64,000 nt of DNA from Salinispira pacifica (GCF_000507245.1 NC_023035.1:2335570-2399569), one strand, 5' to 3'. Positions 6,727 through 42,734 are shown, numbered from the stretch's first letter. Numbers and translations are program-made. Notes: generated from the sequence alone by a model not told the origin.

Positions 6727-7940
6727 TTGACAAATTCTCTTCTCCGGTTCACCATGTGGCCCTGCTGTACCAGGCGTTTTCATAGGGAATATACACTTTT
6801 GAACCGCCCCGGCCATCACATGCCTGACCGGAGACATGAAGTGAATAAGATATCAGCGCTGCCGGGCAATGTACTGGTAATTCTTTTTTCCGGCATTGCC
6901 GTTTCCGCCTTCCTTGCAGTTCTTATAACTGTGATCTATCGGATCTCCGCCGGTTTAGCCGGCGGCACCGTCGACTCTTCAAAAAAACCTCCCAGAGGTC
7001 CGATTCTGCGCCGATTGCACGGAAGCACAAAGACCGGAACTGTCCACAAACATCCCATTGTACCCGCTCTTATCATCGTTCCCATCCTCGCCCTGGGAGT
7101 GACCATGGGTTTCCCCTGGTGTATACGGTGGTTCTCAGTTTCGGCAATATGAATCTGTTCCATTTTCGAAATCCCGACTTATCCCTGAGCCTCTTCATGG
7201 AAAATATGATCGGCGTGTTCACCGGCCCCATCCTCCGGCGTGACGGACTGTGGATAATACTGGCCCGAACCCTGTTGTGGACGGGAATCCAGACCTTCTT
7301 CCAGGTGCTGCTGGGGATGATACTGGCTCTCAGCCTGAATGCACCCATCCGCTTCGCCCGCTTCTTCAAGTGGATGCAGGTTCTGCCCTGGGCCATTCCC
7401 GGCACCATCTCTCTGATGACTCTTCGCTATGAATTTCATCCCAGCTTCGGTTTCATAAATCAGGTTCTTGAGCTTCTCCCGGGTGTTGCCACAGGTCCTG
7501 CGTGGTGGAGCGATCCGTTCTGGAACTTCGTCTCCATGAATCTGGTGAATCTGTGGCTTGGAGTCCCTTTTATGATGATACTCCTTCTTGGGGCGCTGCA
7601 GGGCGTGGACCGAAACTGCCTTGAAGCAGCTGAACTGGACGGTGCAAGCCGTATGCGCAGGCTGTTTTCAGTGACCCTGCCCCTGATACTGCCCACGGTA
7701 CTCCCGGCGGTGCTTTTTTCCGCCATCTACAGCTTCAATAATTTCGGGGTGCCCTACTTCATGAACCCCCAGGAGCTGGAAAACAGCCATCTGCTGTCCC
7801 TTGCCATCTTCCGGGCCGCCAGCTATTTCAACCGCTACAGCTTTTCCTCGGCACTGGCCATTGTGAACACTCTTCTGGTACTTCTGATGGTGATAATTCC
7901 CATCCGCTACAGCGGACTTCTCCAGGAGGCCAAACGATGA
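6727..7940 (+). pseudogene. MalF/UgpA-like sugar ABC transporter permease interrupted by a -1 frameshift at a poly-C tract near 7113-7116
   Basis: Frame 1 (6727..7152) supplies the TM1 segment ...PALIIVPILALGVTMGFP. Frame 3 (7119..7940) continues LVYTVVLSFGN... through the EAA loop motif EAAELDGASRMRRLF. Adding one C to the run ttcccctgg would restore GFPLVYTVVLSF in one frame. The true N-terminus is unclear. Confidence 0.5.
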
Positions 7941-30721: not shown

Positions 30722-30758
30722 AATATTGGGTGCTTTGATAATATTGGGTGCTTTGATA
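30722..30758 (+). repeat. Tandem direct repeat (2 x about 19 bp, aatattgggtgctttgata) abutting the -35 box of the gntR operon promoter
   Basis: Seen directly: ...ccgaatattgggtgctttgataatattgggtgctttgatattgaca... Confidence 0.8.
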
Positions 30759-30787
30759 TTGACAGCTTGCCACCGGCAAATTACTAT
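30759..30787 (+). promoter_or_regulatory. Sigma70-type promoter of the gntR-spfh-ABC-lolA-like-omp operon with an operator-like palindrome in the spacer
   Basis: TTGACA (30759-30764), a 17-bp spacer gcttgccaccggcaaat containing the inverted repeat ttgcc-N3-ggcaa, then TACTAT (30782-30787). Start codon at 30826. Confidence 0.5.
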
Positions 30788-30825
30788 TGTATTAAAGCAT
30801 TAGTACAAGCATACAAGGAGATGGG

Positions 30826-31227
30826 GTGGCAGCTTCAGATATCCGGCAGTCCGGTATTCCGTTCAGTCTCGATCCCAAAAGCGGAGTACCCTACTATAAG
30901 CAGATTATACTCCAGATTGAGATGGCAATTGCAGACGGAAGGCTGACCACCGGCGACCAGCTGCCCACGGTGAGAAGCCTTGCGGTGACCCTGAAAATCA
31001 ACCCCAACACCGTAGCCCGGGCCTACAGCGAACTGGAAATCCGGAACCTGGTCACCACTCAGCAGGGTACCGGCACCTTTATCAGCGATAAAGAGGTGAA
31101 GCTCAGCGAGGTGGAGCGGGAGGAGAAGCTTGAAGAGATGGTCCGGACCTTTTTATCCAGGGGCCGATCCTACGGGTTCAGCCCCCGGGAGCTGGCGGAA
31201 GCTGTGCGCAGGGCCGGGGAAACCTGA
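30826..31227 (+). CDS. GntR-family transcriptional regulator, YtrA-like short subfamily
   Basis: 133 aa. Winged HTH (...YKQIILQIEMAIADGRLTTGDQLPTVRSLAVTLKINPNTVARAYSELEIRNLV...) plus a short C-terminal helical dimerisation region. YtrA-type regulators typically precede ABC transporter operons. Confidence 0.8.
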   Translation: MAASDIRQSGIPFSLDPKSGVPYYKQIILQIEMAIADGRLTTGDQLPTVRSLAVTLKINPNTVARAYSELEIRNLVTTQQGTGTFISDKEVKLSEVEREEKLEEMVRTFLSRGRSYGFSPRELAEAVRRAGET

Positions 31228-31271
31228 GGAATCATACAGCGGGAGCCGGGGACTGCTAATCCGGCCTTTTT

Positions 31272-31310
31272 GATCATCGGTCCTGATTTTTCCGGATCAT
31301 CGGTCCTGAA
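31272..31310 (+). repeat. Perfect 15-bp direct repeat (gatcatcggtcctga) x2, 9 nt apart, between gntR and the SPFH gene
   Basis: Seen directly at 31272-31286 and 31296-31310. Confidence 0.8.
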
Positions 31311-31387
31311 TTTCACCGGCATCCTGTGGTCAATCACGAACGGGACTGTCTGAAAAGCACCAAAACGCCCATCCACGGAGGATACAG

Positions 31388-32614
31388 ATGGAAAAACATT
31401 TCAATGCCCTGAACAGAATCAAGAATCCCATGCCCAGAGTTCAGAAGGGGGATTTCCGCTTCAGTATATATTCCTTCTTCTCCATGCTGGGAATCTTTGC
31501 AGTCTTTGCGGGTATGCAGTGGCTCATTGCAGGAGGGGTGAACCTGGAGATTATTATTCGGGGCAGCATTGCCCTTGCCGCAGCCGCGTTGGTCTATCTG
31601 CTTCTTCCCAGGTGGTCGGCGCTGATTCTGGTGATCATTATCAGCCAGGGCATTGCCCTGGTTCCCCTGCCCCGGGAAGTGCTCTCCGCTCTCCCTTCGG
31701 GAGCGGGTGCGTCACCAGGCCCCTGGGATGGCATCGCTCTGGCGGGCCTGGTTCTGGCGGTGCTCAGCGGACCCTCGGTGCAGCTGATCTTTCAATGGGA
31801 GAAGGCGGTGGTGCTCCGGCTGGGTAAATTCCACCGGGTCCGGGATCCGGGCATTTTTCTCCTGGTTCCGGTTATGGACCGATGCACCGCCTTCGTGGAT
31901 ACCCGCATACGGGTGACGGATTTCAGCGTGGAAAAAATCCTTACCAGCGATACGGTGCCGGTACACGTGGATGCCCTGGCCTTCTGGATGATCTGGGATC
32001 CCGGCAGGGCAATTCTGGAGGTTGAAGACTATATTTCAGCGGTGACCCTTTCGGCTCAGGCGGCACTGAGGGATAGTATCGGGAAGTACAGTCTTACAAC
32101 CCTTCTCAGCGAAAGGGATACTCTTTACCGGGAGATCCAGACCATTCTTGACGCCAAAACCAATCCCTGGGGCATCACCATTCTCAGCGTTGAGTTCACC
32201 GATATCATTCTTCCCGATGATCTTCAGGATGTGATGTCCAAGAAGGCCCAGGCAGAGCGTGAGAAGGAAGCCAGGCTCTATCTTGCCCAGGCCGAGTATG
32301 ATATTGCGGTGGAGATGTCCAGGGCTTCCCGGCAGTATAACGGCGACAGTGAAGCGCTGAATTTACGGGCCATGAATATGGTATACGACAGCATGAAGAC
32401 CCGGGGAAGCATGGTGATGCTGCCCTCGGGAGTACTTGAACGGATGAATATGGGCACGACACTGGGTGTCAGTGCATTTGCGGAATCCGCCATGAAAGAC
32501 GGAGATTCACCGGCAGAACATGAGGATCCTGTGACTGCAGAACCACAGAGCGATACAAATAACCAGAACAAGAGGGATACGCCCCAGGAGCGGGATCCCG
32601 GGAGGAAATCATGA
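31388..32614 (+). CDS. SPFH/band-7 (stomatin-like) protein with a 4-TM N-terminal domain and charged coiled-coil tail
   Basis: Four N-terminal hydrophobic helices, then a canonical stomatin/PHB core (...WEKAVVLRLGKFHRVRDPGIFLLVPVMDR...VDTRIRVTDF...DTVPVHVDALAFWMIWDP...ILSVEFTDIILPDDLQDVMSKKAQAEREKEARL...). GGAGGA RBS. Confidence 0.8.
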   Translation: MEKHFNALNRIKNPMPRVQKGDFRFSIYSFFSMLGIFAVFAGMQWLIAGGVNLEIIIRGSIALAAAALVYLLLPRWSALILVIIISQGIALVPLPREVLSALPSGAGASPGPWDGIALAGLVLAVLSGPSVQLIFQWEKAVVLRLGKFHRVRDPGIFLLVPVMDRCTAFVDTRIRVTDFSVEKILTSDTVPVHVDALAFWMIWDPGRAILEVEDYISAVTLSAQAALRDSIGKYSLTTLLSERDTLYREIQTILDAKTNPWGITILSVEFTDIILPDDLQDVMSKKAQAEREKEARLYLAQAEYDIAVEMSRASRQYNGDSEALNLRAMNMVYDSMKTRGSMVMLPSGVLERMNMGTTLGVSAFAESAMKDGDSPAEHEDPVTAEPQSDTNNQNKRDTPQERDPGRKS

Positions 32615-33288
32615 TCAGCACACAGAACGTTCACCGCACATATCAGAGCGGGGAAACCAGTGTTCACGCACTGAAAGGGGTGGACCTTGAGATTGAAACC
32701 GGAGAATTTCTCTCGATTGCAGGACCCAGCGGCTCGGGGAAAACCACCCTTCTGAATATTCTGGGCTGCATCGACAGCGCGGATGAGGGAGTTGTCCACA
32801 TCGACGGGACGGAGATCACATCAATTCCCCACGGCAAGCTTGCTTCCTTCCGACGGGAGAAACTGGGCTTTGTTTTTCAATCCTTTAATCTGATACCGGT
32901 GCTCAGCGCATATGAAAATGTTGCACTGGCTCTGAATCTTCTGAAAATACCTGAAGATGAGATCAAGAAGCGTACCATGGCGCTCCTGAAGGAAGTGGGC
33001 CTGGAAGGAATGGAGAACCGGCGCCCGGGGAAACTGTCCGGGGGTCAGCAGCAGCGGGTGGCCATAGCTCGGGCACTGATCAAGGAACCGGCCATAGTAC
33101 TGGCAGACGAGCCCACGGCAAATCTGGACAGCGAAACCGGACAGGAGATTCTTGAACTGATGAAGAAGATGAACTCCAAGACCAACACCACATTTATTTT
33201 CAGCACCCACGACAAGATGGTGATGGATTACGCCCGAAGGCTTGTGCTGCTCCATGACGGCTATGTCCAGAAGGACGAACGGAGGTAA
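32611..33288 (+). CDS. ABC transporter ATP-binding protein, MacB/LolD/FtsE-type
   Basis: Walker A GPSGSGKTT, signature LSGGQQQRVAIARAL, Walker B IVLADEPTANLD. The start overlaps the SPFH stop (ATGA). Confidence 0.85.
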   Translation: MISTQNVHRTYQSGETSVHALKGVDLEIETGEFLSIAGPSGSGKTTLLNILGCIDSADEGVVHIDGTEITSIPHGKLASFRREKLGFVFQSFNLIPVLSAYENVALALNLLKIPEDEIKKRTMALLKEVGLEGMENRRPGKLSGGQQQRVAIARALIKEPAIVLADEPTANLDSETGQEILELMKKMNSKTNTTFIFSTHDKMVMDYARRLVLLHDGYVQKDERR

Positions 33289-33290
33289 TC

Positions 33291-34550
33291 ATGAAATTCC
33301 TCATAGCACTTTCCTTCAAGAACCTTGCCCGGTACACAAAACGCACCATCATCACTGCTTCGGCAATCGCATTCGGACTGGCCATGTTTTTATTCATCGA
33401 CAGCATGCTCAAGGGTGCCGAAAAAGATTCTGAACGAAATCTCATCTGGTATGAAACTGCCTCGGCACGGGTGTATGCCAGGGAAAACCTCGATGACTGG
33501 CGGAAAATGAATCTGAAACACATGATTGAGAATCCCGGAGAAATTATCTCCGCCATAGAAGATGCCGGCTACGAAGCGGCCCCCCGAGCGGCTTTCAGCG
33601 GGGAAATGGTGGTATACCGCGATCCGTTTCCCGAGGACGGATCTGTACAGGTGAGGCTCTTCGCCGTGGATCCTGTGAAGGATCCCGACGTATACCGGAT
33701 GAAGGAGTCCCTGATCGACGGCTCCTCCTGGCTGGAGGAAGGAAGCAACGGAGTAATTATGGGCAGCTGGATGGCCGAGGATCTGGGTGCGGATATCGGG
33801 TATCCGGTTACCATCGTCACCCGTACCCGGGACGGAGCGTTTCAGACCATCGATCTTGAAATTACCGGTCTGATCAAAACCGCAAATCCCATGGTGAACC
33901 GCAGCAGCCTTCTCATGGATCTGAGTTATGCGGATGCCATGCTGAACCTTGATGGTGCAGTGAGCCAGATCGATGTTTCCTACCCCCTGGCCGCCGACGA
34001 CCGGGAGGAAGTTGCCGCACTGAAAGCCGCCCTTCCTTCTCAGAGGGATGATGTGAGTGTGGTCAGCTGGAGGTTTCTTGCAGGGGATTACCTGAGCCTT
34101 GCCGCCGCAAAGCAGAGCGGTACGCTGGTAATTCTGGGGCTGGTATTCATTATCGCCCTGGTGGGGATTTCCAACACCATGCTGCTTGCAATGTATGAAC
34201 GGCGGCGGGAGCTGGGTATGCTCAGGGCCATGGGTATGACCGACAGAGAGATTGGCCTGAGCTTCATGATGGAAGCCGGAGGCATAGGACTTATCGGCAG
34301 TCTCATCGGAGCAATCATCGGGGCTGCACTGGTGTGGTTTCTGGTAGATGTGGGCATCAATTTTGAATTTATCCTTCGGGATTTCGACGCCGGATACCGC
34401 ATCAGTTCGGTGTTCCGGGGAATCTGGCGACCCGGCATGTTCGTTCTCGCCGCGGTTTTCGGAGTAGTAATGTCCATGATAGTGGCCCTCATCCCCACCC
34501 GGCAGGCGCTGAAAATGCGGATAACCGACTGCCTTCATGCGGAAACATAG
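33291..34550 (+). CDS. FtsX-family ABC permease with a large periplasmic MacB-like domain (LolC/LolE/MacB type)
   Basis: 419 aa: N-terminal TM, a periplasmic domain of about 220 aa, then 3 C-terminal TMs with the FtsX-type motif (...MYERRRELGMLRAMGMTDREI...). Confidence 0.8.
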   Translation: MKFLIALSFKNLARYTKRTIITASAIAFGLAMFLFIDSMLKGAEKDSERNLIWYETASARVYARENLDDWRKMNLKHMIENPGEIISAIEDAGYEAAPRAAFSGEMVVYRDPFPEDGSVQVRLFAVDPVKDPDVYRMKESLIDGSSWLEEGSNGVIMGSWMAEDLGADIGYPVTIVTRTRDGAFQTIDLEITGLIKTANPMVNRSSLLMDLSYADAMLNLDGAVSQIDVSYPLAADDREEVAALKAALPSQRDDVSVVSWRFLAGDYLSLAAAKQSGTLVILGLVFIIALVGISNTMLLAMYERRRELGMLRAMGMTDREIGLSFMMEAGGIGLIGSLIGAIIGAALVWFLVDVGINFEFILRDFDAGYRISSVFRGIWRPGMFVLAAVFGVVMSMIVALIPTRQALKMRITDCLHAET

Positions 34551-34559
34551 GAGAGGCTT

Positions 34560-35786
34560 ATGAAACTTCACATAATGGCATGGCGAAACATTCAACGGAA
34601 TACCAGGCGTACCGCCCTGTCGGTATCGGCTATCGCAGTTGCTGCAATGGCAATAGTGCTGTTGTTCTCCCTGCTGGCCGGTTTGAGCAATGAACTGAAA
34701 AGCAATCTGCAAACCTTCTACTTCGGTGAGCTGCGGATCCGGCATGCCCAGTATGAAAAGCACGCCAATCTCAATCCCCTGCACCTCAGTGTGGAGTCAG
34801 CCTCCCGCCTCATAGCTGAACTTGAGTCCAGCCCCGCATTGGAACAGGCATCGGCCCGTATTCAGTTCCCGGCTGCAGTGTATGAAGAGGGAAATAATAT
34901 CGGAGTTTCAGCCATGGGGCTGGACTTCTCAAAGGACCTGATGGAACCGGGAACATATCTGATTGAAGGCCGGCTGCCCCGTCCCGGCGAACAGGAGGTC
35001 CTCCTAGGCAGTTCAGCCGCCGGCTCCCTGAACAAAGGCGTAGGCGATTCATTTACCGCCCTCTCCACCACCCTGCGGCGGGCCAGCAATGCCATGACTT
35101 TTGAGGTGGTGGGCGTTGCCTCATTTCCCCTGGCCGATGTGAACTCCCGAATTTATCTGCCGGTGGATACCGTTCAACGCTTCCTGAAGACCGGAGACCG
35201 GGCGGTAGATGTGGTAATGGAAGCTGCCGGCGAATACAGCCTGGAAGATGCACGGACCGCCGCAGCCGCCATTCTGGAAAGTTATCCTCAAAAGGAGGAT
35301 CTCCTGCTGGAGACCTGGAACCGGATCCCTTCAAGCTATATATTTATCCGCATGGCCCAGATGGTCTACTACATTGCCGGAGCGGTCTTCTATGTGCTGG
35401 CTTCCACGGTGATAATCAACACCATCATGATGATCATCTTTGAGCGCACCCGGGAAATCGGCACCCTGGCCAGCATGGGTATGAGCGGGAAAGACATCGT
35501 CCGGATGTTCTTCCTGGAATCCTTTTTCATCAGTACCATTGGAAGTGTTGCCGGTGCAGCTGTGGGCGCAGGATTTACCCTCATTCTGGAGAATACGGGG
35601 ATTGACCTCACATCCGCCATGGAAGGAGTTGACTTTGAAATCTCAGGGGTTGTGTATCCCCACCTGACCGCCGTGAACATTCTCATCGCAGTAGTTACGG
35701 GTATTATTGTTGCCTCGGGCATCAGTCTGATACCCTCACGCAGGGCATCGGGAATTAAGCCCGTGGAAGCAATGAAGAGCATATAG
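34560..35786 (+). CDS. Second FtsX-family ABC permease (paralogous partner)
   Basis: 408 aa with the same architecture (...IFERTREIGTLASMGMSGKDI...). Confidence 0.8.
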   Translation: MKLHIMAWRNIQRNTRRTALSVSAIAVAAMAIVLLFSLLAGLSNELKSNLQTFYFGELRIRHAQYEKHANLNPLHLSVESASRLIAELESSPALEQASARIQFPAAVYEEGNNIGVSAMGLDFSKDLMEPGTYLIEGRLPRPGEQEVLLGSSAAGSLNKGVGDSFTALSTTLRRASNAMTFEVVGVASFPLADVNSRIYLPVDTVQRFLKTGDRAVDVVMEAAGEYSLEDARTAAAAILESYPQKEDLLLETWNRIPSSYIFIRMAQMVYYIAGAVFYVLASTVIINTIMMIIFERTREIGTLASMGMSGKDIVRMFFLESFFISTIGSVAGAAVGAGFTLILENTGIDLTSAMEGVDFEISGVVYPHLTAVNILIAVVTGIIVASGISLIPSRRASGIKPVEAMKSI

Positions 35787-35879
35787 CATATTGAGTGTAC
35801 AGAAGGCATTCCGGCTGCCCCACCATACGGCACAATGCCGGGGACCGCGGGGAAAGCCGCTGCACTAACTGGAGGTACC

Positions 35880-36623
35880 ATGCACAAACGAATCGCAATC
35901 ATAACCGTTCTTCTCATTCTGGGACTCAGCTCCCTCTGGGCCCAGTTTGAGAGAGCCGAGGAAATAATCCTGGAGATGGAAGATCAGGAGGTGTTTGACA
36001 GCGCCTACATTCAGGGAAAAATGATAATCAACGACCGTTTCGGTGAAAAAGTGAGCACCTTTGACAGCTGGTCTCTGGGCAGCGACTACAGTCTGATAGA
36101 ATTCACCAGCGTGGAGGAACGGGGACAGAAAATCCTGCGAAACGACGACGACCTGTATCTCTATTATCCCGATGCCGATGAAGTGATCCGCCTTTCCGGA
36201 GCAGCTCTCAGGGACGGAATTCTCGGTTCAGATGTGAGCTATGAGGATATGACCGGAGATAAATCCCTGCTGGCAGACTACCGGGTCAGCGGATTTGAGG
36301 AAGACCGGCTCACAGGAAAGGATGTATACGTAGTTGAACTGGAAGCTCTCCGTTCATCGGTTCCGTACCAGAAACAGATTCTCTGGATCGAACAGGACCG
36401 CCTGGTGGGAATGCAGGCACACAAATTTTCCCTGAGCGGCAGACTGCTGAAGGTTGAGCGGGTGCTGGAATACCGCGCGATGGATGAATACCTGTTCCCG
36501 GTTCATATTGTCACAGAGGATAAGCTCAAGCAAAATTCCAGCACAGAGTTTATAATTGAAGAGATAGATCTTGATTATCCCCTGGATCGAGGATTCTTCT
36601 CCCTGGATGAACTTACCTGGTGA
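35880..36623 (+). CDS. LolA-like outer-membrane lipoprotein-sorting/carrier-fold protein (PF17131-like), secreted
   Basis: Signal peptide MHKRIAIITVLLILGLSSLWAQ from the internal ATG, with a GGAGG RBS. Core ...ILRNDDDLYLYYPDADEVIRLSGAALRDGILGSDVSYEDM matches the LolA-like family pattern (rng-d-W-Y-P...v-ri-s......GSDFsYeD). Confidence 0.55.
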   Translation: MHKRIAIITVLLILGLSSLWAQFERAEEIILEMEDQEVFDSAYIQGKMIINDRFGEKVSTFDSWSLGSDYSLIEFTSVEERGQKILRNDDDLYLYYPDADEVIRLSGAALRDGILGSDVSYEDMTGDKSLLADYRVSGFEEDRLTGKDVYVVELEALRSSVPYQKQILWIEQDRLVGMQAHKFSLSGRLLKVERVLEYRAMDEYLFPVHIVTEDKLKQNSSTEFIIEEIDLDYPLDRGFFSLDELTW

Positions 36624-36678
36624 GACGGGCTCCCATTCCCGGGCAAGGAGGATTATTTTGATACCCAATCGAGCACTG

Positions 36679-37818
36679 ATGACACTTCTCATGTTTCTTA
36701 TGCTCCCGGGCATCTGGATCTCTCAGGCCGCAGCGGAAACCGGCACGTCGGTGGAACTGGACCTGTATAACGGTATTCTCATGAATCCCGAACCGGACAA
36801 CATTGAGCTTCGGTATCTGGCAGGAGGTTCGGGAAAAATACGCCTGGAGGCACGGGGAAACAGGAACGTCCGGGGTGAACTCAGCATCGCCGCAGACCTG
36901 GGCCTCACCTACACCCTGACAATCGATACGGCATATATCCGCACCCGCCTGGGTCCACTTCGCCTTACTGCGGGAAAGACCAGAATCAGCTGGGGTGAAG
37001 GTACCGTGTTCAACGCTGCAGATGTAATCATGGGCTCCACCGATCTGGATGTGGACCTCACATCCGCGGAGTTCAGGAGTGAAACTGACTGGTTGAGTGC
37101 CCTGTACCTTCCACTGGGCCGCTTTTCCTTCATAGAGGCCATTGTACTCCCCCCCATGCCCGATACACAGGCATACCAGGACTATATGAGCGGGCTCATA
37201 AGCGATCCTTTCCCGCCGATATCAGATACGGGACTGGGAGTACGTAGTTCCTTCACCTTTGAACGCTTTTTGGGAATCAAGCTGGAAACGGGGTACTTTT
37301 ACACCGGCAGCGCCGACAGCCACACCGGGTATCTCAGTCTCCAGGGCGGCACCGGGCTGAACTGGCACCTGAGCAGTTCCCTTGAGATGACCGGCGATAG
37401 CTTTGGAAGCGGTGCCGATGCGTTTTTCCAGGGACTCACCGCCAGCGGAGGTCTCTACTCGCTGAACGATGTCTCTTCACGGGTCAGCATGAATGTCCGC
37501 ATGGAAGCCCTCTACAACTACAGCGGTGAATTCATCGAAGTGGAGAATCCAGATCCTGCGAACCCTCCGGAATACGGAATATACGGATACTTCGACTTCT
37601 CCCTGGGCATTGATTCCAACCTGAACGTGTATCTCCGCTCAATTGTGAGTCCCGCAGACGGCTCGGCTTTGGTAATTCTCGGCAACACCTTCAATATATA
37701 TCAGGGATTTACCTTTTATACCAATGTGAGCGGGAGTTTCGGCGAAAGCAACGATACCTATGCCAACAGAAGGCTGGGCGGGTACGGCTTGGTCACCGGC
37801 ATCCGCTACATTTATTAA
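36679..37818 (+). CDS. Putative outer-membrane beta-barrel protein
   Basis: Signal peptide MTLLMFLMLPGIWISQAAA from the internal ATG. Alternating hydrophobic Gly/Tyr/Ser-rich strands throughout, and a C-terminal ...GIRYIY* ending in an aromatic residue, as in OM barrels. Confidence 0.45.
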   Translation: MTLLMFLMLPGIWISQAAAETGTSVELDLYNGILMNPEPDNIELRYLAGGSGKIRLEARGNRNVRGELSIAADLGLTYTLTIDTAYIRTRLGPLRLTAGKTRISWGEGTVFNAADVIMGSTDLDVDLTSAEFRSETDWLSALYLPLGRFSFIEAIVLPPMPDTQAYQDYMSGLISDPFPPISDTGLGVRSSFTFERFLGIKLETGYFYTGSADSHTGYLSLQGGTGLNWHLSSSLEMTGDSFGSGADAFFQGLTASGGLYSLNDVSSRVSMNVRMEALYNYSGEFIEVENPDPANPPEYGIYGYFDFSLGIDSNLNVYLRSIVSPADGSALVILGNTFNIYQGFTFYTNVSGSFGESNDTYANRRLGGYGLVTGIRYIY

Positions 37819-37894: not shown

Positions 37895-38725
37895 TCATAG
37901 CCGTTGATCCATATAGGCAACGGCAAAATCCACCAGTTCCCGTGAGGGAAGAATACGAACGGTTCCTATACCAAGGCTCAGTGTTTTCCATAGTTCGGGG
38001 TGTTCTGTACAGAAGGCCTCTCCGATCTCCTGGAAGAGATCGCTGTTGAAATCAATATCCCGGTATTCTTCCCATTGAGTTTTCCCGTTTTTCACGGACA
38101 CCGGTGCACGGTAACTGCATTGCTTATCCCGTGAGTCTGCGGCCCTGCATTCGGCCAGATGAAGCATGGTGCAGTTTTCGAACCCCACGCCCATGAGGAG
38201 AATTTTCACATTCCGGTCATACAGCCGGGCGAGGGGGCTGTGCTCCCCCATTGAGAAATCCATGGGATGGGGTTCCAGGATGGATGATGCGTCCGGGCCC
38301 ATACAGGCTATGCTGTAGTGGGGGTGGCTGCTTCGCTTCACCCCCGGCAGCGTACGGAACAGTTCCGGGGTGCGCCCCAGCCTTCTGCAGCTGGCGGTAT
38401 GAAGGTCAAAGGGGGGCATGGAATCCATCACCTGATCAATCCAGCCCTCAGGTACCGGGGGGTTTTCCCACAGTCCGGGATCACTGATATCATTGCTGTG
38501 GGCGGGCATGACAATATGCCCCCGTTCTCCCACCGCATCCTTCACTCCCTGAATCAGTGCCAGCGGACCTCCGCAGATCCAGCCGATATTATTCAGGGAA
38601 ACATGCAGCATCACATCACTGCCCGACTCAAGGGGGCTGAGCGCATCCCGCACATCCTTCCGGGTCACCGGTCCGGACCCGGTTTTCAGCATCAGGCGGT
38701 ACTCCGCCTCGTATCGTGGTTCCAT
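37895..38725 (-). CDS. Aminoglycoside N3-acetyltransferase-family protein (AAC(3)/YokD-like, PF02522 fold)
   Basis: ...VMLHVSLNNIGWICGGPLALIQGVKDAVGERGHIVMPAHSNDISDP...PPFD... reproduces the AAC(3) family core (VMVHSSLS.IG.V.GG...VI.AL.D.VG..GTLVMPTHS). Confidence 0.6.
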   Translation of the reverse strand: MEPRYEAEYRLMLKTGSGPVTRKDVRDALSPLESGSDVMLHVSLNNIGWICGGPLALIQGVKDAVGERGHIVMPAHSNDISDPGLWENPPVPEGWIDQVMDSMPPFDLHTASCRRLGRTPELFRTLPGVKRSSHPHYSIACMGPDASSILEPHPMDFSMGEHSPLARLYDRNVKILLMGVGFENCTMLHLAECRAADSRDKQCSYRAPVSVKNGKTQWEEYRDIDFNSDLFQEIGEAFCTEHPELWKTLSLGIGTVRILPSRELVDFAVAYMDQRL

Positions 38726-38759
38726 GGAATGATTTTACCCGGTACAAAGTTCTGTGTCA

Positions 38760-39803
38760 TCATTCCCTGAACAGCGCTTCATCTTCTATCTGGTCGTCAT
38801 AACTGGCAAATACGCTTGCACGATCCGGTTTGCTTGCCCCCGGCGGCATGAGGTCAAGCACCACCTGACCGTCCAGGGCCTGAAATACCGGCATTCCCTG
38901 GAAGCTCCCCCGCTTACCGTACTCCCCCACATGTTCCCCCAGACCGCCGCCGAATCGTCCCTTGAGGATCAGAACATTCCGGATAATCCGCCGCTCCCCC
39001 TGAAACTCCAGGGTAAGGGGCACCGGAATATACTGGCCGTTGAAGGCCCGGTTTTTCCGGTCGATTCCTGCGAGGCTGTCTTCCGTCCAGTTGATATGTG
39101 CCCGTGTACGGGCCAGCTGGATGGACGCATGTACACCGTTCATCATTTCCTGGGATACGGGCAGCACCTCACCCCGGTGCATAAGCTTCACAAGGCTTTT
39201 GATATGCCGAATCCCCGCATAGCAGGTGCGGTTGAGAAGGGATGCCGGGGTTTCGCGCCTTCGGATTGATACCGCCGGAGTGCGCCAGATTATTTCCCCG
39301 GCGTCGTACTGTTCGCTTACCCGGTGTACCGTTCCATAAAAACTCTGCATATCGCTGAGAATAGCCCAGGTTTCCGCCTCAAAGCCCCTGAGGGCAGGTA
39401 GAGGCCCCGGGTGAAAATTGATGAACCCCAGCCTGGGTGCGGAAAACAGGTCGGGAGGAAGCCATGATCCAAAGTATACAACTCCCAGGCTGTAGTTTTC
39501 CCTTCTGAACGTTTCCAGCCACTCCTGCCAGCCGGCGTTCCGGTCAGGATCGGAGAAACTTTTCAGGATCTTTTTCCTGGGCTGTCTGAGAATGGCCGGG
39601 ATGTGATGAATCCTGCATCCTTTGAACCGCTGATGGTTGAGCCTGTCCCCGGGGCGTACATACAGCCCCTCCACCTTCACCCCCTGATTAATCAGGGCGC
39701 GAACCAGATCTGCACCGCTGTCCCGCCGGGATGCAGGACGGTGACTTCCAATGAATACGCATACTTTTTCCCGCTGCCTGGGCGTAGCTGCCATGTTCTG
39801 CAC
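38760..39803 (-). CDS. Formyltransferase-family protein (Fmt/ArnA-N-like fold; not a canonical methionyl-tRNA formyltransferase)
   Basis: N-terminal ...KVCVFIGSHR...LINQGVKVEGLYV... and the substrate-loop motif INFHPGPLPALRGFEAETWAIL (compare Fmt NVHASLLPRWRGAAPIQ), plus a C-terminal Fmt-like domain. Its start abuts the cyclase stop. Confidence 0.5.
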   Translation of the reverse strand: MQNMAATPRQREKVCVFIGSHRPASRRDSGADLVRALINQGVKVEGLYVRPGDRLNHQRFKGCRIHHIPAILRQPRKKILKSFSDPDRNAGWQEWLETFRRENYSLGVVYFGSWLPPDLFSAPRLGFINFHPGPLPALRGFEAETWAILSDMQSFYGTVHRVSEQYDAGEIIWRTPAVSIRRRETPASLLNRTCYAGIRHIKSLVKLMHRGEVLPVSQEMMNGVHASIQLARTRAHINWTEDSLAGIDRKNRAFNGQYIPVPLTLEFQGERRIIRNVLILKGRFGGGLGEHVGEYGKRGSFQGMPVFQALDGQVVLDLMPPGASKPDRASVFASYDDQIEDEALFRE

Positions 39804-42734
39804 CTATTTCTGCTGGGGCCGGAGGATTCCGTCCCAGGGTTCGGGTTCACGTCCACGCTTGCGGGCTTCTTCCCGCTCGATGTGGTACCGGTCGATACAG
39901 GAAATAAACAGATCCGCAATTGCACGGTTGAATGGATCCTCCCTGATGGTCATGAACAGATCGTAGGCGGTCTGCATATTTCCTGCTTCAAAAGCTGCGA
40001 CCCCATCATTCAGAATCTGCTTGTTTCGAAGCTTGGCCTCAATCTCCTCCTCGGGCAGACCATTGAGAATCTCGTATACGCTCCGGGCCTGCTGCCTGCC
40101 CACCACCTGTATCCGTCCCATGTAGCGCTTCAGGTATTCATCGGCGGTGCTCATCGCCTCAAGGGCGTCGCTGCTGACGATGATGGAAGCGCCCATCTGC
40201 TTGGAGAGGGTCTCCAGTCTGGCGGCGAGGTTCACCGAGTCGGAGATCACCGTCCCCTGCATTCGATTCTCATCCCCCAGAATACCCAGCATCAGATCGC
40301 CGGTATGAATGCCTGCTCCCACCCGGATCTCCGGCTGCCCCTGTTCACGCTGTTCCCTGTTGTAACCGTTCAGCCGGGTAATCATGGCCACCGCCGCCTG
40401 CACTGCGTCATCGGCGCTGTCGGGAAAGAGAGCCATTATAGCGTCTCCGATATATTTATCGATAAAACCCCGTCGTTCCCGGATGACCGGCCCCACCATG
40501 CTCAGATAGGCGTTGAGAAAGTTGAAATTTTCATCCGGACTCATGCTCTCGGAGATGGCCGTAAAGCGCCTGATATCAGAGAACATGATCGTCATGGTTT
40601 TCTGCACCTGGTCTCCCAGCTTCACTTCCGTAAGATCGCTGAGATCCAGATATTTCAGAAACTGGTCGGGAAAGAACCGGCGGTAGCTCTCGTTCATATT
40701 TTCTATCTGCTGAAGATAGGTGTTGATGGAACGGCTCATGAAATTAAACCGCTTGCCCAGGTCGCTCACCTCATCGTTGCTTGTGAGCCGGATCTGGTAA
40801 TCCCAGTCCCCTTCGGCAATCCGCTCAACCCCGTTGCGTAAAATCCGCAGACTCCGGAGAATCATCACCGTCATGATCATAATAAAAACCACAATCAGGG
40901 CGGCAATCAGGGTCATCACCATCATGGTCCTGGAATAGAGCTCCCTGGCATTCTCATTAAAACTGTATAAGTCGCTGCCGATCTCCAGAAGAGCCACCAC
41001 CTGATTGCTGGAATCGTAGATCGGGCCCACGCCGTACAGCCAGTTGCCGCTGATATCCTGTACCTGTTCGAACACCACATCCCCTTCATTGGCTTTCCGG
41101 TACACGCTCTGGGGATCCTCATACCAGTTGAAGGGATGACGGAGGCCGATACGGTTATTCAGATACATAAACCCGTACAGGTTCTCATCCACAACCTGAT
41201 ACAGGGCGAAATACAGCCCTTCGTTCCAACTGTCCAGGTTGTAATTCAAGGCTTGCCGGAGATCGTTGCGTATCTGCTGATATTCTGCATTCATGTAATC
41301 ATCCATCCCGCGTATTTCATGGAACAGATCCCCGTCCACGCTTTGTCCGATGGTCTGGGTAAGAGCCAGAATTGTATCGATATTATTCTGCTCATAGGAA
41401 TCGATGAAGCTGCTTAAAAGAATGGTGGAAATGAGGAAAATTCCCCCGGCCATCAGCGGTACGATGATCAACAACTGCTTGAATACCAGAGATATCCGCC
41501 TCTTGAGAATATAAATATAGGTGTGAACCACCAGCGCCGCCAGGGCCAATCCTCCTGCAATGAGTCCCGTCCACCAGAGAAACGCCCTGACCCGCCACAT
41601 GGGCGGGATGTGATACTTTTCACTGTGTGTAATCCGGGAGTTGGCATCTCCCCCGTAGACCCCGTAATCATAGGTTGTGAGAAATCCGTTGGGGGAATAC
41701 CCCACCCGGTAATAGATAAACGGTTCATCCGAGTATCCCTTTCGGGACAGCAGCTCCCGATCCAGAACACTGCGGTATTCAACGGTGAAATTTGAGGAGT
41801 TCAGGAAGGAAATCAGGGGGATGGCTGCAATACGACGGTTGACCAGATCACTGACATACAGCCAGTCATCTCCGCCGATGGTCATATCCCAGAAATACTC
41901 GTCCGGAAGCCCGGGATCGTAAAAATAGCCGGCACCGCTATTCTGACTGGACGGGAATGACTCATCTTCCTCATCATCCGCCCGGACAGGTCCGGCGATA
42001 TCCACCCGGGACATTTCAGAGTAAATATCTCCGAGAATCATATGTCCCCGCTTATCCAGAATGATGTAATTCTCACCATCCACCCACTCAATATCCGCCA
42101 CATAGGCATTGGCGTCGGGAAAATAGCTTTCGCCGAGAATTTCCGTGGTTTCCCGTTCAAGAGATTTCCGGATGAACTGGATACCCGTATCCTGTACCAG
42201 AAAAAAATAGAGATAGCCCCGTTGAATCCGGGGACTGAAAATTTCTCCTCTCTGAATATACTCGGCCTTTTTCTCATCATACCTGCGCTGATACAGAATT
42301 CTGCGAAAATCGCCGTTCACCCCGTACTCCAGGATTTCCTCCCGCTGGATGAAGGTTCCTTTGTCATCCAGCACATAGTTGAGAATAAAAAAACTGTCTT
42401 CTTCTCCGGGAAGCACCAGGTCGGCATAGAAAAACCGTCCCTCTCTTCTGTCCCCTCCCCGGATTTCGGAGATCAACTCTCCTTCCTGGTCCGCCACAAG
42501 AATTCTTCTCAGGCTGGTGTCTATGACAATCGTTCTGTTCTGATCATCCTCCACGGCAAACTGGGGGAAATCCAGGACCGCATGACTCTGGAAAGGGTTT
42601 CTGTCACGCTCAGCAAAACCCGCCAGGATCAGAATAAGACTCACTCCCAGAACTCCCGATGCCACGGGAAGAATGCTTCTTCCAAGCTTCTGTATCCACG
42701 TCCGTTTATGATTATCAGTGCTTCGGCTGCTCAT
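39804..42734 (-). CDS. Membrane sensor adenylate/guanylate cyclase (class III): TM, NHL-repeat-like periplasmic domain, 2 TM, Cache-like periplasmic domain, TM, HAMP, cyclase
   Basis: 976 aa. HAMP (...RSLRILRNGVERIAEGDWDYQIRLTSNDEVSDLGKRFNFMSRSIN...). Class III cyclase core (TIMFSDIRRFTAISE...FIDKYIGDAIMALF...VGAGIHTGDLMLGILGDENRMQGTVISDSVNLAARLE). The periplasmic domains are paralogous to those of the adjacent gene. Confidence 0.8.
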   Translation of the reverse strand: MSSRSTDNHKRTWIQKLGRSILPVASGVLGVSLILILAGFAERDRNPFQSHAVLDFPQFAVEDDQNRTIVIDTSLRRILVADQEGELISEIRGGDRREGRFFYADLVLPGEEDSFFILNYVLDDKGTFIQREEILEYGVNGDFRRILYQRRYDEKKAEYIQRGEIFSPRIQRGYLYFFLVQDTGIQFIRKSLERETTEILGESYFPDANAYVADIEWVDGENYIILDKRGHMILGDIYSEMSRVDIAGPVRADDEEDESFPSSQNSGAGYFYDPGLPDEYFWDMTIGGDDWLYVSDLVNRRIAAIPLISFLNSSNFTVEYRSVLDRELLSRKGYSDEPFIYYRVGYSPNGFLTTYDYGVYGGDANSRITHSEKYHIPPMWRVRAFLWWTGLIAGGLALAALVVHTYIYILKRRISLVFKQLLIIVPLMAGGIFLISTILLSSFIDSYEQNNIDTILALTQTIGQSVDGDLFHEIRGMDDYMNAEYQQIRNDLRQALNYNLDSWNEGLYFALYQVVDENLYGFMYLNNRIGLRHPFNWYEDPQSVYRKANEGDVVFEQVQDISGNWLYGVGPIYDSSNQVVALLEIGSDLYSFNENARELYSRTMMVMTLIAALIVVFIMIMTVMILRSLRILRNGVERIAEGDWDYQIRLTSNDEVSDLGKRFNFMSRSINTYLQQIENMNESYRRFFPDQFLKYLDLSDLTEVKLGDQVQKTMTIMFSDIRRFTAISESMSPDENFNFLNAYLSMVGPVIRERRGFIDKYIGDAIMALFPDSADDAVQAAVAMITRLNGYNREQREQGQPEIRVGAGIHTGDLMLGILGDENRMQGTVISDSVNLAARLETLSKQMGASIIVSSDALEAMSTADEYLKRYMGRIQVVGRQQARSVYEILNGLPEEEIEAKLRNKQILNDGVAAFEAGNMQTAYDLFMTIREDPFNRAIADLFISCIDRYHIEREEARKRGREPEPWDGILRPQQK

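Follow-up and report, generated by a model that had tools for sequence, protein, structure and literature searches.

A predicted seven-gene operon of free-living spirochaetes combining a GntR-slipin cassette with a Lol-like transporter core

Genes and regulatory features of the Salinispira pacifica locus

The window analyzed in this work, a stretch of 64,000 nucleotides of Salinispira pacifica DNA, contains a group of seven open reading frames (g1 to g7), all on the + strand, preceded by a repeat, a predicted promoter and a palindromic element:

30722..30757, +, perfect tandem direct repeat of 18 bp (AATATTGGGTGCTTTGAT x2), shortly before the -35 hexamer
30759..30787, +, predicted sigma-70-like promoter (TTGACA, 17 nt, TACTAT; 10/12 matches)
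30787..30808, +, 22-bp palindromic operator TTGTATTAAAGCATTAGTACAA, adjoining the -10 hexamer and spanning the expected transcription start; putative g1 binding site
30826..31227, +, g1, YtrA-type GntR repressor, 133 aa; PF00392
31388..32614, +, g2, slipin/stomatin-type SPFH protein with 4 TM helices; Band_7
32611..33288, +, g3, ABC ATPase of the LolD/MacB/FtsE type; ABC_tran
33291..34550, +, g4, type VII (FtsX/MacB-type) permease; FtsX and MacB_PCD
34560..35786, +, g5, second type VII permease; FtsX and MacB_PCD
35880..36623, +, g6, secreted, non-lipidated PF17131 (LolA_like / TP_0789-like) periplasmic protein, 247 aa
36658..37818, +, g7, predicted 18-stranded outer-membrane beta-barrel, 386 aa

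A preliminary description of the locus had portrayed the seven genes as tightly packed. This holds for the junctions g2/g3, g3/g4 and g4/g5 (-4, +2 and +9 nt, respectively, the start of g3 overlapping the stop of g2), which are followed by 93 nt between g5 and g6. The g1-g2 junction is not tight, since 160 nt separate the two genes, and this gap could harbor a second promoter. The formerly assumed overlap of g6 and g7 pertains to their longest reading frames, which begin at 35835 and 36571. The likelier starts are the ATG at 35880, preceded by GGAGG, and the TTG at 36658, preceded by AAGGAGG, such that the overlap turns into a 34-nt gap. From these starts, the 247-aa product of g6 agrees in every residue (100% identity) with the NCBI protein, and the 386 aa of g7 match its relatives in length. 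Judged from spacing only, g1 to g7 would be co-transcribed.

Position 30722, from which the operon had been thought to begin, is the first base of the tandem repeat upstream of the promoter, and no gene starts there; the repeat may lie outside the system. A close relative (locus L170) carries a different triple repeat of ~20 bp at the equivalent position. The TTGACA hexamer occurs directly 5' of the operator in most of the related loci and is conserved in L170. The operator, with the 22-bp consensus TTGTAYTA-N6-TARTACAA, has a single match across the 64-kb window (0.03 expected) and closely precedes gntR in 46 of the 48 GntR-bearing loci, with 49 matches in total in 1.37 Mb.

The g1 protein contains a GntR-type winged HTH (PF00392, E = 3.5e-18, residues 24-86 of 133), followed by a C-terminal tail of ~45 aa. 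Its top NCBIfam models are the YtrA-type Rv1152 family and PmtR, both of which score under their equivalog cutoffs. Members of the YtrA subfamily combine a GntR winged HTH and a short C-terminal domain of ~50 aa with a palindromic operator at their own promoter and adjoining membrane or ABC genes; g1 displays all of these features, the site itself being predicted. The expected YtrA-type repressor is found together with its promoter and operator architecture, the operator at 30787-30808 overlapping the promoter. We presume that g1 binds the 22-bp palindrome; it would thereby repress the operon until an inducing signal is received. A response to envelope stress, as in B. subtilis ytrA, is suggested by analogy only.

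The product of g2, 100% identical to "slipin family protein [Salinispira pacifica]", shows a strong match to Band_7 in Pfam (E = 2.9e-35, 122.3 bits versus a cutoff of 23.6). It comprises, in order, four N-terminal TM helices (evident both from hydropathy and from the AF2 model, at residues 27-48, 53-72, 77-91 and 114-130), a cytoplasmic SPFH domain, a coiled coil and a disordered acidic tail. Further AF2 helices at residues 277-316 and 321-339 complete the combination of membrane anchor and coiled coil typical of the SPFH family. The AF2 model and positive-inside counts place the SPFH domain on the cytoplasmic side, together with the ATPase. The nearest solved relatives are PH stomatin (E = 2.7e-34) and QmcA (E = 1.1e-24), and a domain search revealed no NfeD partner gene among the products of the cluster.

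The ATPase g3 (ABC_tran in Pfam, E = 1.1e-34) has LolD (TIGR02211) as its best NCBIfam match, at 224.5 bits and thus short of the cutoff of 307.75. Both g4 (FtsX, E = 3.4e-20; MacB_PCD, E = 4e-06, 27.7 bits versus a cutoff of 27) and g5 (FtsX, E = 2.5e-19; MacB_PCD, E = 2.1e-15) contain four TM helices and a periplasmic domain of ~230 aa, and both align over their full length with the lolCE model (TIGR02212), scoring 92.4 and 96.7 bits, respectively, against a cutoff of 362.45. The PDB relatives of g4 are YtrF of B. subtilis, which ranks top, LolF and LolC; those of g5, its presumed heterodimer partner, are LolF, LolC/E, YtrF and MacB. In g6 the only Pfam family matched is PF17131 (E = 4.3e-46, 157.3 bits versus a gathering score of 30), and the same search gave no match to LolA (PF03548). 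Its PDB relatives are 3BUU (E = 5.5e-18), 3BK5, 4Z48 and 9TP6. The protein begins with a type-I signal peptide (MHKRIAIITVLLILGLSSLWA, followed by Q), inspection of which revealed no lipobox. The unusual four-TM stomatin/SPFH protein, the LolD/MacB-type ATPase with two FtsX-type permeases bearing large periplasmic domains, and the secreted LolA-like carrier-fold protein of PF17131 type, all anticipated in the preliminary description, are therefore borne out by these domain and fold assignments.

The g7 product has a signal peptide, no match in Pfam or NCBIfam, and is a member of a small family that lacks annotation and was found exclusively in Spirochaetota. A profile search against the PDB found nothing. 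The AF2 model is an 18-stranded beta-barrel (pLDDT 92.9), which, together with the C-terminus ...RYIY, agrees with the suggested outer-membrane barrel ending in an aromatic residue. Against the Wzi capsule-assembly barrel family (PF14052), g7 itself stays under the gathering score (14.2 versus 30.1 bits); weak matches to this family appear in 26 of 51 g7-family members (best E = 3.2e-4). Structural matches of the modeled barrel are to substrate-specific uptake channels and polymer-export barrels, the best of them including OccD/OprD, maltoporin and chitoporin, a resemblance that forms a counterpoint to reading the system as an exporter. Many charged residues are conserved, among them a conserved stretch that lies between strands 5 and 6, and with these g7 is not an obvious lipid conduit.

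Gene order is conserved and modular across Spirochaetota

Across a set of 83 non-redundant loci, all of which derive from Spirochaetota, the g3-g4-g5-g6-g7 core was complete wherever the sequence was long enough to contain it. Dozens of species-level genomes keep the gene order, even where the identity of g7 has fallen to ~30%; the adjacency is therefore not due to chance, and the neighborhood is conserved across genomes as had been supposed. In total, 102 relatives were recovered among 185,579 species genomes, in a patchy distribution confined to Spirochaetota, and one Marispirochaeta genome contains two copies (L013 and L019). Searches from the SPFH homologues return to the same cluster. In four of the five loci with called genes, g6 and g7 overlap by 4-7 nt, which suggests translational coupling. 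No cargo or biosynthetic gene was found to be linked to or conserved beside the cluster.

GntR and SPFH genes precede the core in 49 of 59 informative loci. Ten core loci lack SPFH: seven are led by a TetR gene and are located at no fewer than three (i.e., at least three) positions in the tree, one has GntR without SPFH and two have neither. The GntR+SPFH pair forms a stand-alone cassette in most metagenomic loci, with GntR directly upstream of SPFH in 63 of 64, and the same operator motif is present in 49 of 63 such stand-alone cassettes. ABC or FtsX genes lie nearby in 3 of the 26 GntR+SPFH loci with at least 3 kb of downstream sequence, and multi-TM SPFH variants are also found away from ABC genes. 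Since the GntR+slipin cassette stands alone with the same operator, and the TetR-run core occurs without SPFH, g2 appears to belong with the repressor, and the role initially assigned to it, that of a scaffold of the transporter, is not supported. The predicted seven-gene operon, conserved in free-living spirochaetes, is a composite, in which a widespread GntR+slipin cassette is joined to a transporter core.

A possible export function and its alternatives

Our preferred reading, to which we give about an even chance, is that of a two-module operon under one autoregulated promoter, which would serve the inducible extrusion or clearance of a hydrophobe embedded in the membrane, and not the sorting of lipoproteins as a housekeeping task. 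Module A would consist of g1 and g2, i.e., the YtrA-type GntR repressor and the cytoplasm-facing slipin, a pair that exists independently in many other bacteria; g1 bound to the palindrome abutting the -10 hexamer would switch off the whole operon. Module B (g3 to g7) would form a Lol-like trans-envelope exporter that probably removes a greasy molecule from the inner membrane. The g3 ATPase dimer would drive the g4/g5 heterodimer of type VII permeases, which would extract a hydrophobic or amphipathic cargo and hand it to the soluble LolA-fold g6; this protein would then cross the periplasm with the cargo and deliver it to g7, the dedicated barrel, where it would either be released from the outer membrane or become inserted in it. 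Here we infer the direction of transport, the hand-over to g6 and g7 and the nature of the cargo. The inducible, non-housekeeping character is indicated by the dedicated local repressor (YtrA or TetR), the operator at the promoter, the patchy distribution and the two copies in one genome. The earlier Lol/Mac-like trans-envelope interpretation is reasonable. Extraction of lipid-like substrates is a recurrent theme among type VII ABC systems (PMC12646458), and iron limitation induces TetR-controlled PF17131/MMPL/ABC clusters in Porphyromonas and Prevotella by a factor of 13 to 136 (PMC10434189).

Module B may alternatively be dedicated to biogenesis, supplying the outer membrane or cell surface with one particular endogenous lipoprotein or glycolipid as a second, specialized Lol pathway. 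The layout resembles LolCDE-LolA, spirochaetes are without a known LolB (PMC13078400), and Borrelia BBJ23-29, with its MacB-like ABC transporter, LolA-like protein and outer-membrane barrel, has been so interpreted (PMC13078400). We nevertheless consider this function unlikely, as the scores stay well short of the equivalog cutoffs for LolD and LolCE, no similarity of g6 to Borrelia plasmids was detected, the cluster has no conserved cargo gene beside it, and the local repressor swaps between YtrA and TetR types. Such repressor swapping is commoner in inducible export. We would attach hardly any probability to g3-g6 being the organism's only, housekeeping LolCDE-LolA system: LolD and lolCE are indeed the top-ranked NCBIfam models, but the scores fall far under the equivalog cutoffs, the carrier is PF17131 instead of LolA PF03548, and the cluster is under repressor control, has relatives in only ~100 of the species genomes searched, all Spirochaetota, and is duplicated in one of them. 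Transport in the opposite direction, in which the barrel would admit a hydrophobic nutrient, g6 would carry it inward and the ABC complex would insert or import it, draws on the OccD/OprD, maltoporin and chitoporin matches of g7 and seems very improbable.

A further alternative concerns g2, whose oligomer might form an integral scaffold or cage enclosing or organizing the ABC complex. HflK/C, which encloses or organizes FtsH, provides a precedent, as does stomatin for channels. The 4-nt overlap of g2 and g3, the presence of SPFH in 49 of 59 informative loci and the cytoplasmic location shared by the SPFH domain and the ATPase are consistent with such a cage, and encapsulation of transporters by stomatin cages is reported (PMC12407830). 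We regard it as quite doubtful, given that stand-alone GntR+SPFH loci dominate (with ABC or FtsX neighbors in 3 of 26), that the transporter core does without SPFH in 10 loci, with TetR variants at three or more tree positions, and that SPFH copies unlinked to ABC genes have a multi-TM N-terminus as well. A literature search found no paper linking SPFH to a type VII ABC system, in line with the preliminary remark that no characterized system is known to join an SPFH protein with a Lol/Mac-like transporter.

Comparison with known systems

Among known systems, LolCDE-LolA of E. coli resembles the cluster in having a single ATPase and a pair of distinct FtsX-type permeases, each with four TM helices and, between TM1 and TM2, a large periplasmic domain, all of which are found in g3-g5; a soluble partner of LolA fold is likewise common to both. 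The nearest solved relatives of g4 and g5 include LolF and LolC/E. Identity with canonical LolCDE was rejected, as g3 scores 224 versus 308 bits for LolD and g4/g5 92-97 versus 362 for LolCE, the carrier is PF17131, and the outer-membrane partner is an 18-stranded barrel in place of the lipoprotein LolB. The present cluster is, moreover, repressor-controlled and patchily distributed. With MacAB-TolC, the cluster has in common the envelope-spanning logic and a type VII permease with the MacB_PCD periplasmic core domain, present in both g4 and g5. This assignment was also rejected: a domain search of the cluster found neither an HlyD-type membrane-fusion adaptor nor a TolC-type outer-membrane factor that would supply the duct, the ATPase is a separate polypeptide, and a soluble carrier replaces the continuous channel.

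Like B. subtilis ytrGABCDEF and S. salivarius MbrR-MbrAB, the locus has a short GntR repressor as the first gene of an FtsX-type ABC operon, and its 22-bp palindrome has G and C at positions 3 and 20, as mutated in the MbrR study (10.64898/2026.02.18.706565). Those operons belong to monoderm Bacillota, however, and are without a LolA-like protein, barrel or SPFH. Slipin + NfeD operons likewise contain a stomatin-branch SPFH protein, whereas the partner of g2 is a YtrA-type GntR and its anchor has four TM helices instead of a single hairpin.

Borrelia BBJ23-29, likewise a spirochaete cluster, brings together a type VII ABC transporter (MacB-like), a LolA-like protein and a barrel of the outer membrane, and has been read in silico as exporting a non-polar ligand (PMC13078400). 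It differs in its Omp85-type barrel and TPR chaperones; g7 is porin-like with 18 strands, and a domain search found no TPR genes in the seven-gene cluster. AmeABCD of Castellaniella defragrans consists of a DUF1302 barrel (605 aa), a DUF1329 LolA-superfamily protein, an HAE3 RND pump, which takes the place of the ABC transporter found here, and an extra COG4447 protein. As proposed for the present cluster, an inner-membrane exporter is combined with a periplasmic protein of the LolA superfamily and a barrel of its own in the outer membrane. The system is inducible, strains deleted for it tolerate monoterpenes less well, and genetic evidence supports efflux of hydrophobes, namely monoterpenes and Nile Red (PMC6394551).

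The seven genes and their products

The block comprises seven ORFs (g1-g7) on the plus strand at positions 30826-37818, and its SPFH and PF17131 proteins both match NCBI proteins from Salinispira pacifica at 100% identity. Six of the ORFs (g1-g6) were assigned by Pfam and NCBIfam, and all of the domains named in the preliminary description (GntR, SPFH, ABC, FtsX/MacB_PCD and LolA-like) were recovered.

Products of the seven genes (30826-37818, plus strand)
g1: 133-aa GntR protein (PF00392, E 3.5e-18); closest full-length relatives are the YtrA-type Rv1152 and PmtR families
g2: Band_7/SPFH protein, a slipin (E 2.9e-35)
g3: ABC ATPase; top model LolD, 224.5 bits versus a cutoff of 307.75
g4 and g5: permeases with FtsX and MacB_PCD domains; lolCE, 92-97 bits versus a cutoff of 362
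g6: PF17131 LolA_like protein, named TP_0789-like in the newer Pfam release (E 4.3e-46)
g7: predicted 18-stranded barrel; no match in Pfam or NCBIfam

Ribosome-binding sites and homologue lengths place the start of g6 at ATG 35880 (247 aa) and that of g7 at TTG 36658 (386 aa); with these revised starts, the successive junctions measure 160, -4, +2, +9, +93 and +34 nt. A lipobox-free signal peptide of type I is present in g6 as well as in g7, and g7 terminates in ...RYIY. Antisense to g4 lies a 464-aa ORF (33390-34784, minus strand) with a His/Gly/Pro-rich, low-complexity-looking translation, which is almost certainly a shadow ORF of the coding strand.

Hydropathy and AF2 concur in assigning four transmembrane (TM) helices to g2 (27-48, 53-72, 77-91 and 114-130), followed by the SPFH domain and a long coiled coil. 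The K+R counts of 54 g2 homologues (N-terminus 6.1; loops one to three 0.02, 0.22 and 0.33; segment following TM4 4.2) indicate an N-in, C-in topology, with the SPFH domain facing the cytoplasm. Among solved structures, g2 is closest to stomatins and QmcA and not to HflK/C. What stomatins do in bacteria is a question of long standing. An adaptation to the transporter was considered as the reason for the three additional TM helices and rejected, because multi-TM SPFH variants are also present in stand-alone GntR+SPFH pairs.

The assignment of g7 as an outer-membrane barrel is supported at the fold level. Only 52 g7-like clusters were detected in 5.8 billion proteins, and those matches that bear a taxonomic name are all spirochaetal. 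When the profile was run in full with HMMER against 1.84 billion representatives, 445 family members were found; among the matches listed, all of them strong members of the family, none forms a bridge to a named barrel family. The g7-family profile likewise matched nothing among PDB sequences at E<=10. Sub-threshold matches to Wzi (PF14052) occur in half of the family (best E 3.2e-4), and we treat this sequence relation as a lead and not as membership. The strongest conserved motif, R-x3-GKTRLSWGEG-x2-FNAGD, falls in the long stretch that connects strands 5 and 6; by standard barrel topology this would correspond to extracellular loop 3, which usually forms the constriction. The g7 proteins add an unannotated outer-membrane protein family to the free-living spirochaetes.

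Conservation of the cluster

The distribution of the cluster was assessed by scanning 185,579 species, each represented by one genome, with the g7 profile, which revealed 102 relatives. The 80 loci retrieved are all from Spirochaetota (Salinispira, Marispirochaeta, Oceanispirochaeta, Sphaerochaeta, Pleomorphochaeta, Thalassospirochaeta and one Treponemataceae), and these, together with five loci from gene look-ups, were annotated by phmmer. The transporter core, g3-g4-g5-g6-g7, was found wherever the contig extends far enough. Among the 59 loci that are informative upstream, 49 contain the SPFH gene, and GntR is visible in 47 of these; seven have a TetR regulator without SPFH, one has GntR without SPFH, and two have neither regulator type nor SPFH. 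A search from SPFH homologues (48-76% identity) returned to the same seven-gene cluster. Since the flanking genes vary among loci, the seven-gene block itself is the conserved unit, and the neighbourhood on which the operon proposal depended holds across the retrieved Spirochaetota loci.

In the window, proC, serS and a NeuB-like gene lie upstream of the cluster, and three convergent genes lie downstream (37895-42734, minus strand). By synteny with L170, one of the related loci (L-numbers), the latter encode an AAC(3)-type antibiotic N-acetyltransferase, a formyltransferase-like protein and a 976-aa membrane adenylate/guanylate cyclase containing a HAMP domain. These flanking genes are shared with the Salinispira relatives L001 and L170, but not with other genera.

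Many related clusters contain a third FtsX-type permease paralogue, the position of which varies by lineage: between g2 and g3 (L027, L045, L049, L050, L065), between g6 and g7 (L038, L068, L077, L079, L081, L084), after g7 (L071, L078, L080, L083) or upstream (L069, L076). In L069, a second operator palindrome is located 1.4 kb upstream, ahead of the extra permeases. Candidatus Marispirochaeta associata JC231 harbors two copies of the transporter core (L013 and L019), one with GntR+SPFH and the other without either regulator type within reach. Only in L056 (1024-1906) does a GntR ORF, a short one of 82 aa, immediately precede the ABC ATPase, the SPFH gene being absent; this locus may represent a deletion derivative.

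The putative operator and the stand-alone GntR-slipin cassette

Upstream of g1 there is a putative promoter, TTGACA-17-TACTAT, with a perfect 22-bp palindrome (TTGTATTAAAGCATTAGTACAA, 30787-30808) abutting the -10 hexamer; the palindrome is the single match in the window, versus 0.03 expected. The motif TTGTAYTA-N6-TARTACAA occurs just upstream of gntR in 46 of 48 GntR loci, with only 49 occurrences in the entire 1.37 Mb of loci and none in the TetR-type loci. It is conserved in the close relative L170, in which the sequence farther upstream is not. Its G3 and C20 correspond to the positions mutated in the operator study of MbrR, a YtrA-type repressor of S. salivarius that is sequestered by its own ABC ATPase (10.64898/2026.02.18.706565). 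The uniqueness of the palindrome, its conservation upstream of gntR and the correspondence of G3 and C20 support autoregulation of the operon through this putative operator. Inside the operon, promoter-like matches (10 versus 5.4±2.5 by chance) and terminator-like matches (11 versus 8.0±3.5) are within expectation, and Rfam gave no match anywhere in the window.

Several short repeats are evident in the same region. A perfect 18-bp tandem repeat (AATATTGGGTGCTTTGAT, two copies, 30722-30757) lies just upstream of the promoter, and a partial third copy extends into the -35 hexamer; at the same site the relative L170, which is 76-97% identical, carries (about 7395-7455) a different triple repeat of about 20 bp (TGTATTCACAGTTRCGATT). 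The 160-nt g1-g2 spacer includes a 23-nt tandem duplication (GATCATCGGTCCTGAWTTT, two copies, 31272-31313), which is missing from the 83-nt spacer of L170, and in most other loci g1 and g2 abut or overlap. The spacer was rejected as an attenuator, as its fold is no better than that of shuffled sequences (z 0.59) and the spacer itself is not conserved in L170.

The pairing of GntR and slipin extends well beyond the transporter. Scanning metagenomes with the SPFH profile yielded 80 loci; of the 64 that have upstream sequence, 63 contain a g1-like GntR gene immediately before the SPFH gene, and the same palindrome is present in 49 of these 63. By comparison, an ABC or FtsX gene is nearby in only three of the 26 loci that extend 3 kb or more downstream. 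Taken together, these data indicate that GntR and slipin form a stand-alone, presumably autoregulated cassette, found on many metagenome contigs (counted as contigs) other than the spirochaete cluster. When g4+g5 are placed in a neighbour-joining tree, the variants with TetR and no SPFH fall at three or more separate positions, indicating that SPFH is gained or lost along with GntR and not with the transporter. On this sequence evidence, the operon appears to be a fusion of two modules, the GntR+slipin cassette and the transporter core. The observations of the preliminary description are confirmed and its interpretation only in part: an SPFH scaffold for the transporter is not borne out, as GntR+SPFH mostly stands alone and the core occurs without SPFH under TetR.

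Full-text literature searches returned no paper linking GntR to slipins, nor SPFH to FtsX or LolA systems; in line with the earlier remark, no characterised system joining SPFH with a Lol/Mac-like transporter was found, and we could not find a description of the GntR-slipin cassette in the searchable literature. In L106 (5543-9303), the ORF immediately after a stand-alone cassette is 818 aa long, has weak similarity to FtsX permeases and resembles an ADOP-type duplicated permease; the cassette may here have a further, independent connection to FtsX-type proteins.

Proposed function and relation to known systems

Beyond domain, fold, synteny and operator conservation, the mechanism is what we infer. 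We favour an inducible system, in which g3-g5 would withdraw a compound of hydrophobic or amphipathic nature from the inner membrane, to be shuttled via g6 to g7. The interchangeable local repressors, patchy distribution, paralogous copies in one genome and coupling to the slipin cassette together favour this reading; the main rival is a specialised biogenesis route. Speculatively, g2 or g3 could relieve repression by sequestering the repressor, as the MbrR precedent suggests. A broader and rather improbable proposal is that GntR+slipin constitutes an undescribed, widely distributed membrane-state sensor/effector cassette. At a perturbed membrane, the repressor, which has no ligand domain, would be sequestered by the cytoplasm-facing slipin (or by the ABC ATPase in spirochaetes), and this would induce the slipin, and in Spirochaetia also a new Lol-like exporter (LolA-fold shuttle and private 18-stranded barrel) that clears the offending hydrophobe. 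If true, prokaryotic stomatins would gain a defined regulatory circuit and a function open to testing. The close, apparently phylum-spanning association between slipin and YtrA-type autorepressor, together with a defined operator, reduces the question of slipin induction to a simple reporter-gene experiment.

The partner set of PF17131 LolA-fold carrier and dedicated 18-stranded barrel has, to our knowledge, no experimental characterisation so far, and could reveal how hydrophobes transit the periplasm in diderms without LolB or TolC-type ducts. Like LolCDE-LolA, the transporter core consists of an ATPase, a type VII permease heterodimer and a soluble LolA-fold partner, but it scores below the Lol equivalog thresholds; unlike Mac pumps, it has neither an MFP nor TolC. 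A known defence system was rejected, as PADLOC gave only generic ABC-ATPase and LolE-TM similarities.

A LolA-superfamily protein is combined with a private barrel and an inner-membrane exporter in AmeABCD, which confers monoterpene tolerance (PMC6394551), and, by in silico inference, in the Borrelia BBJ23-29 cluster (PMC13078400). Since tblastn against 72,556 plasmids gave no Borrelia lp38-type match to g6, the BBJ cluster is an analogue with no detectable orthology. In Porphyromonas and Prevotella, PF17131 genes occur in TetR-controlled, strongly stress-induced exporter clusters (PMC10434189). The Bacteroidota megaplasmid pPP1 of Persicobacter psychrovividus (L088, 4126-9747) encodes TetR, a 378-aa secreted ORF, ABC, FtsX, FtsX and PF17131; the 378-aa ORF, the same size as g7, has no Pfam match and no significant hhalign match to the g7 profile (E 0.59), and could be an analogous barrel. 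It is the partner proteins that define a type VII ABC system; such systems work through mechanotransmission, and lipid-like molecules recur among their substrates (PMC12646458). Judged by its domains and folds, the operon is predicted to encode a type VII ABC system that uses a LolA-fold carrier and its own barrel and is joined to a GntR-slipin cassette.
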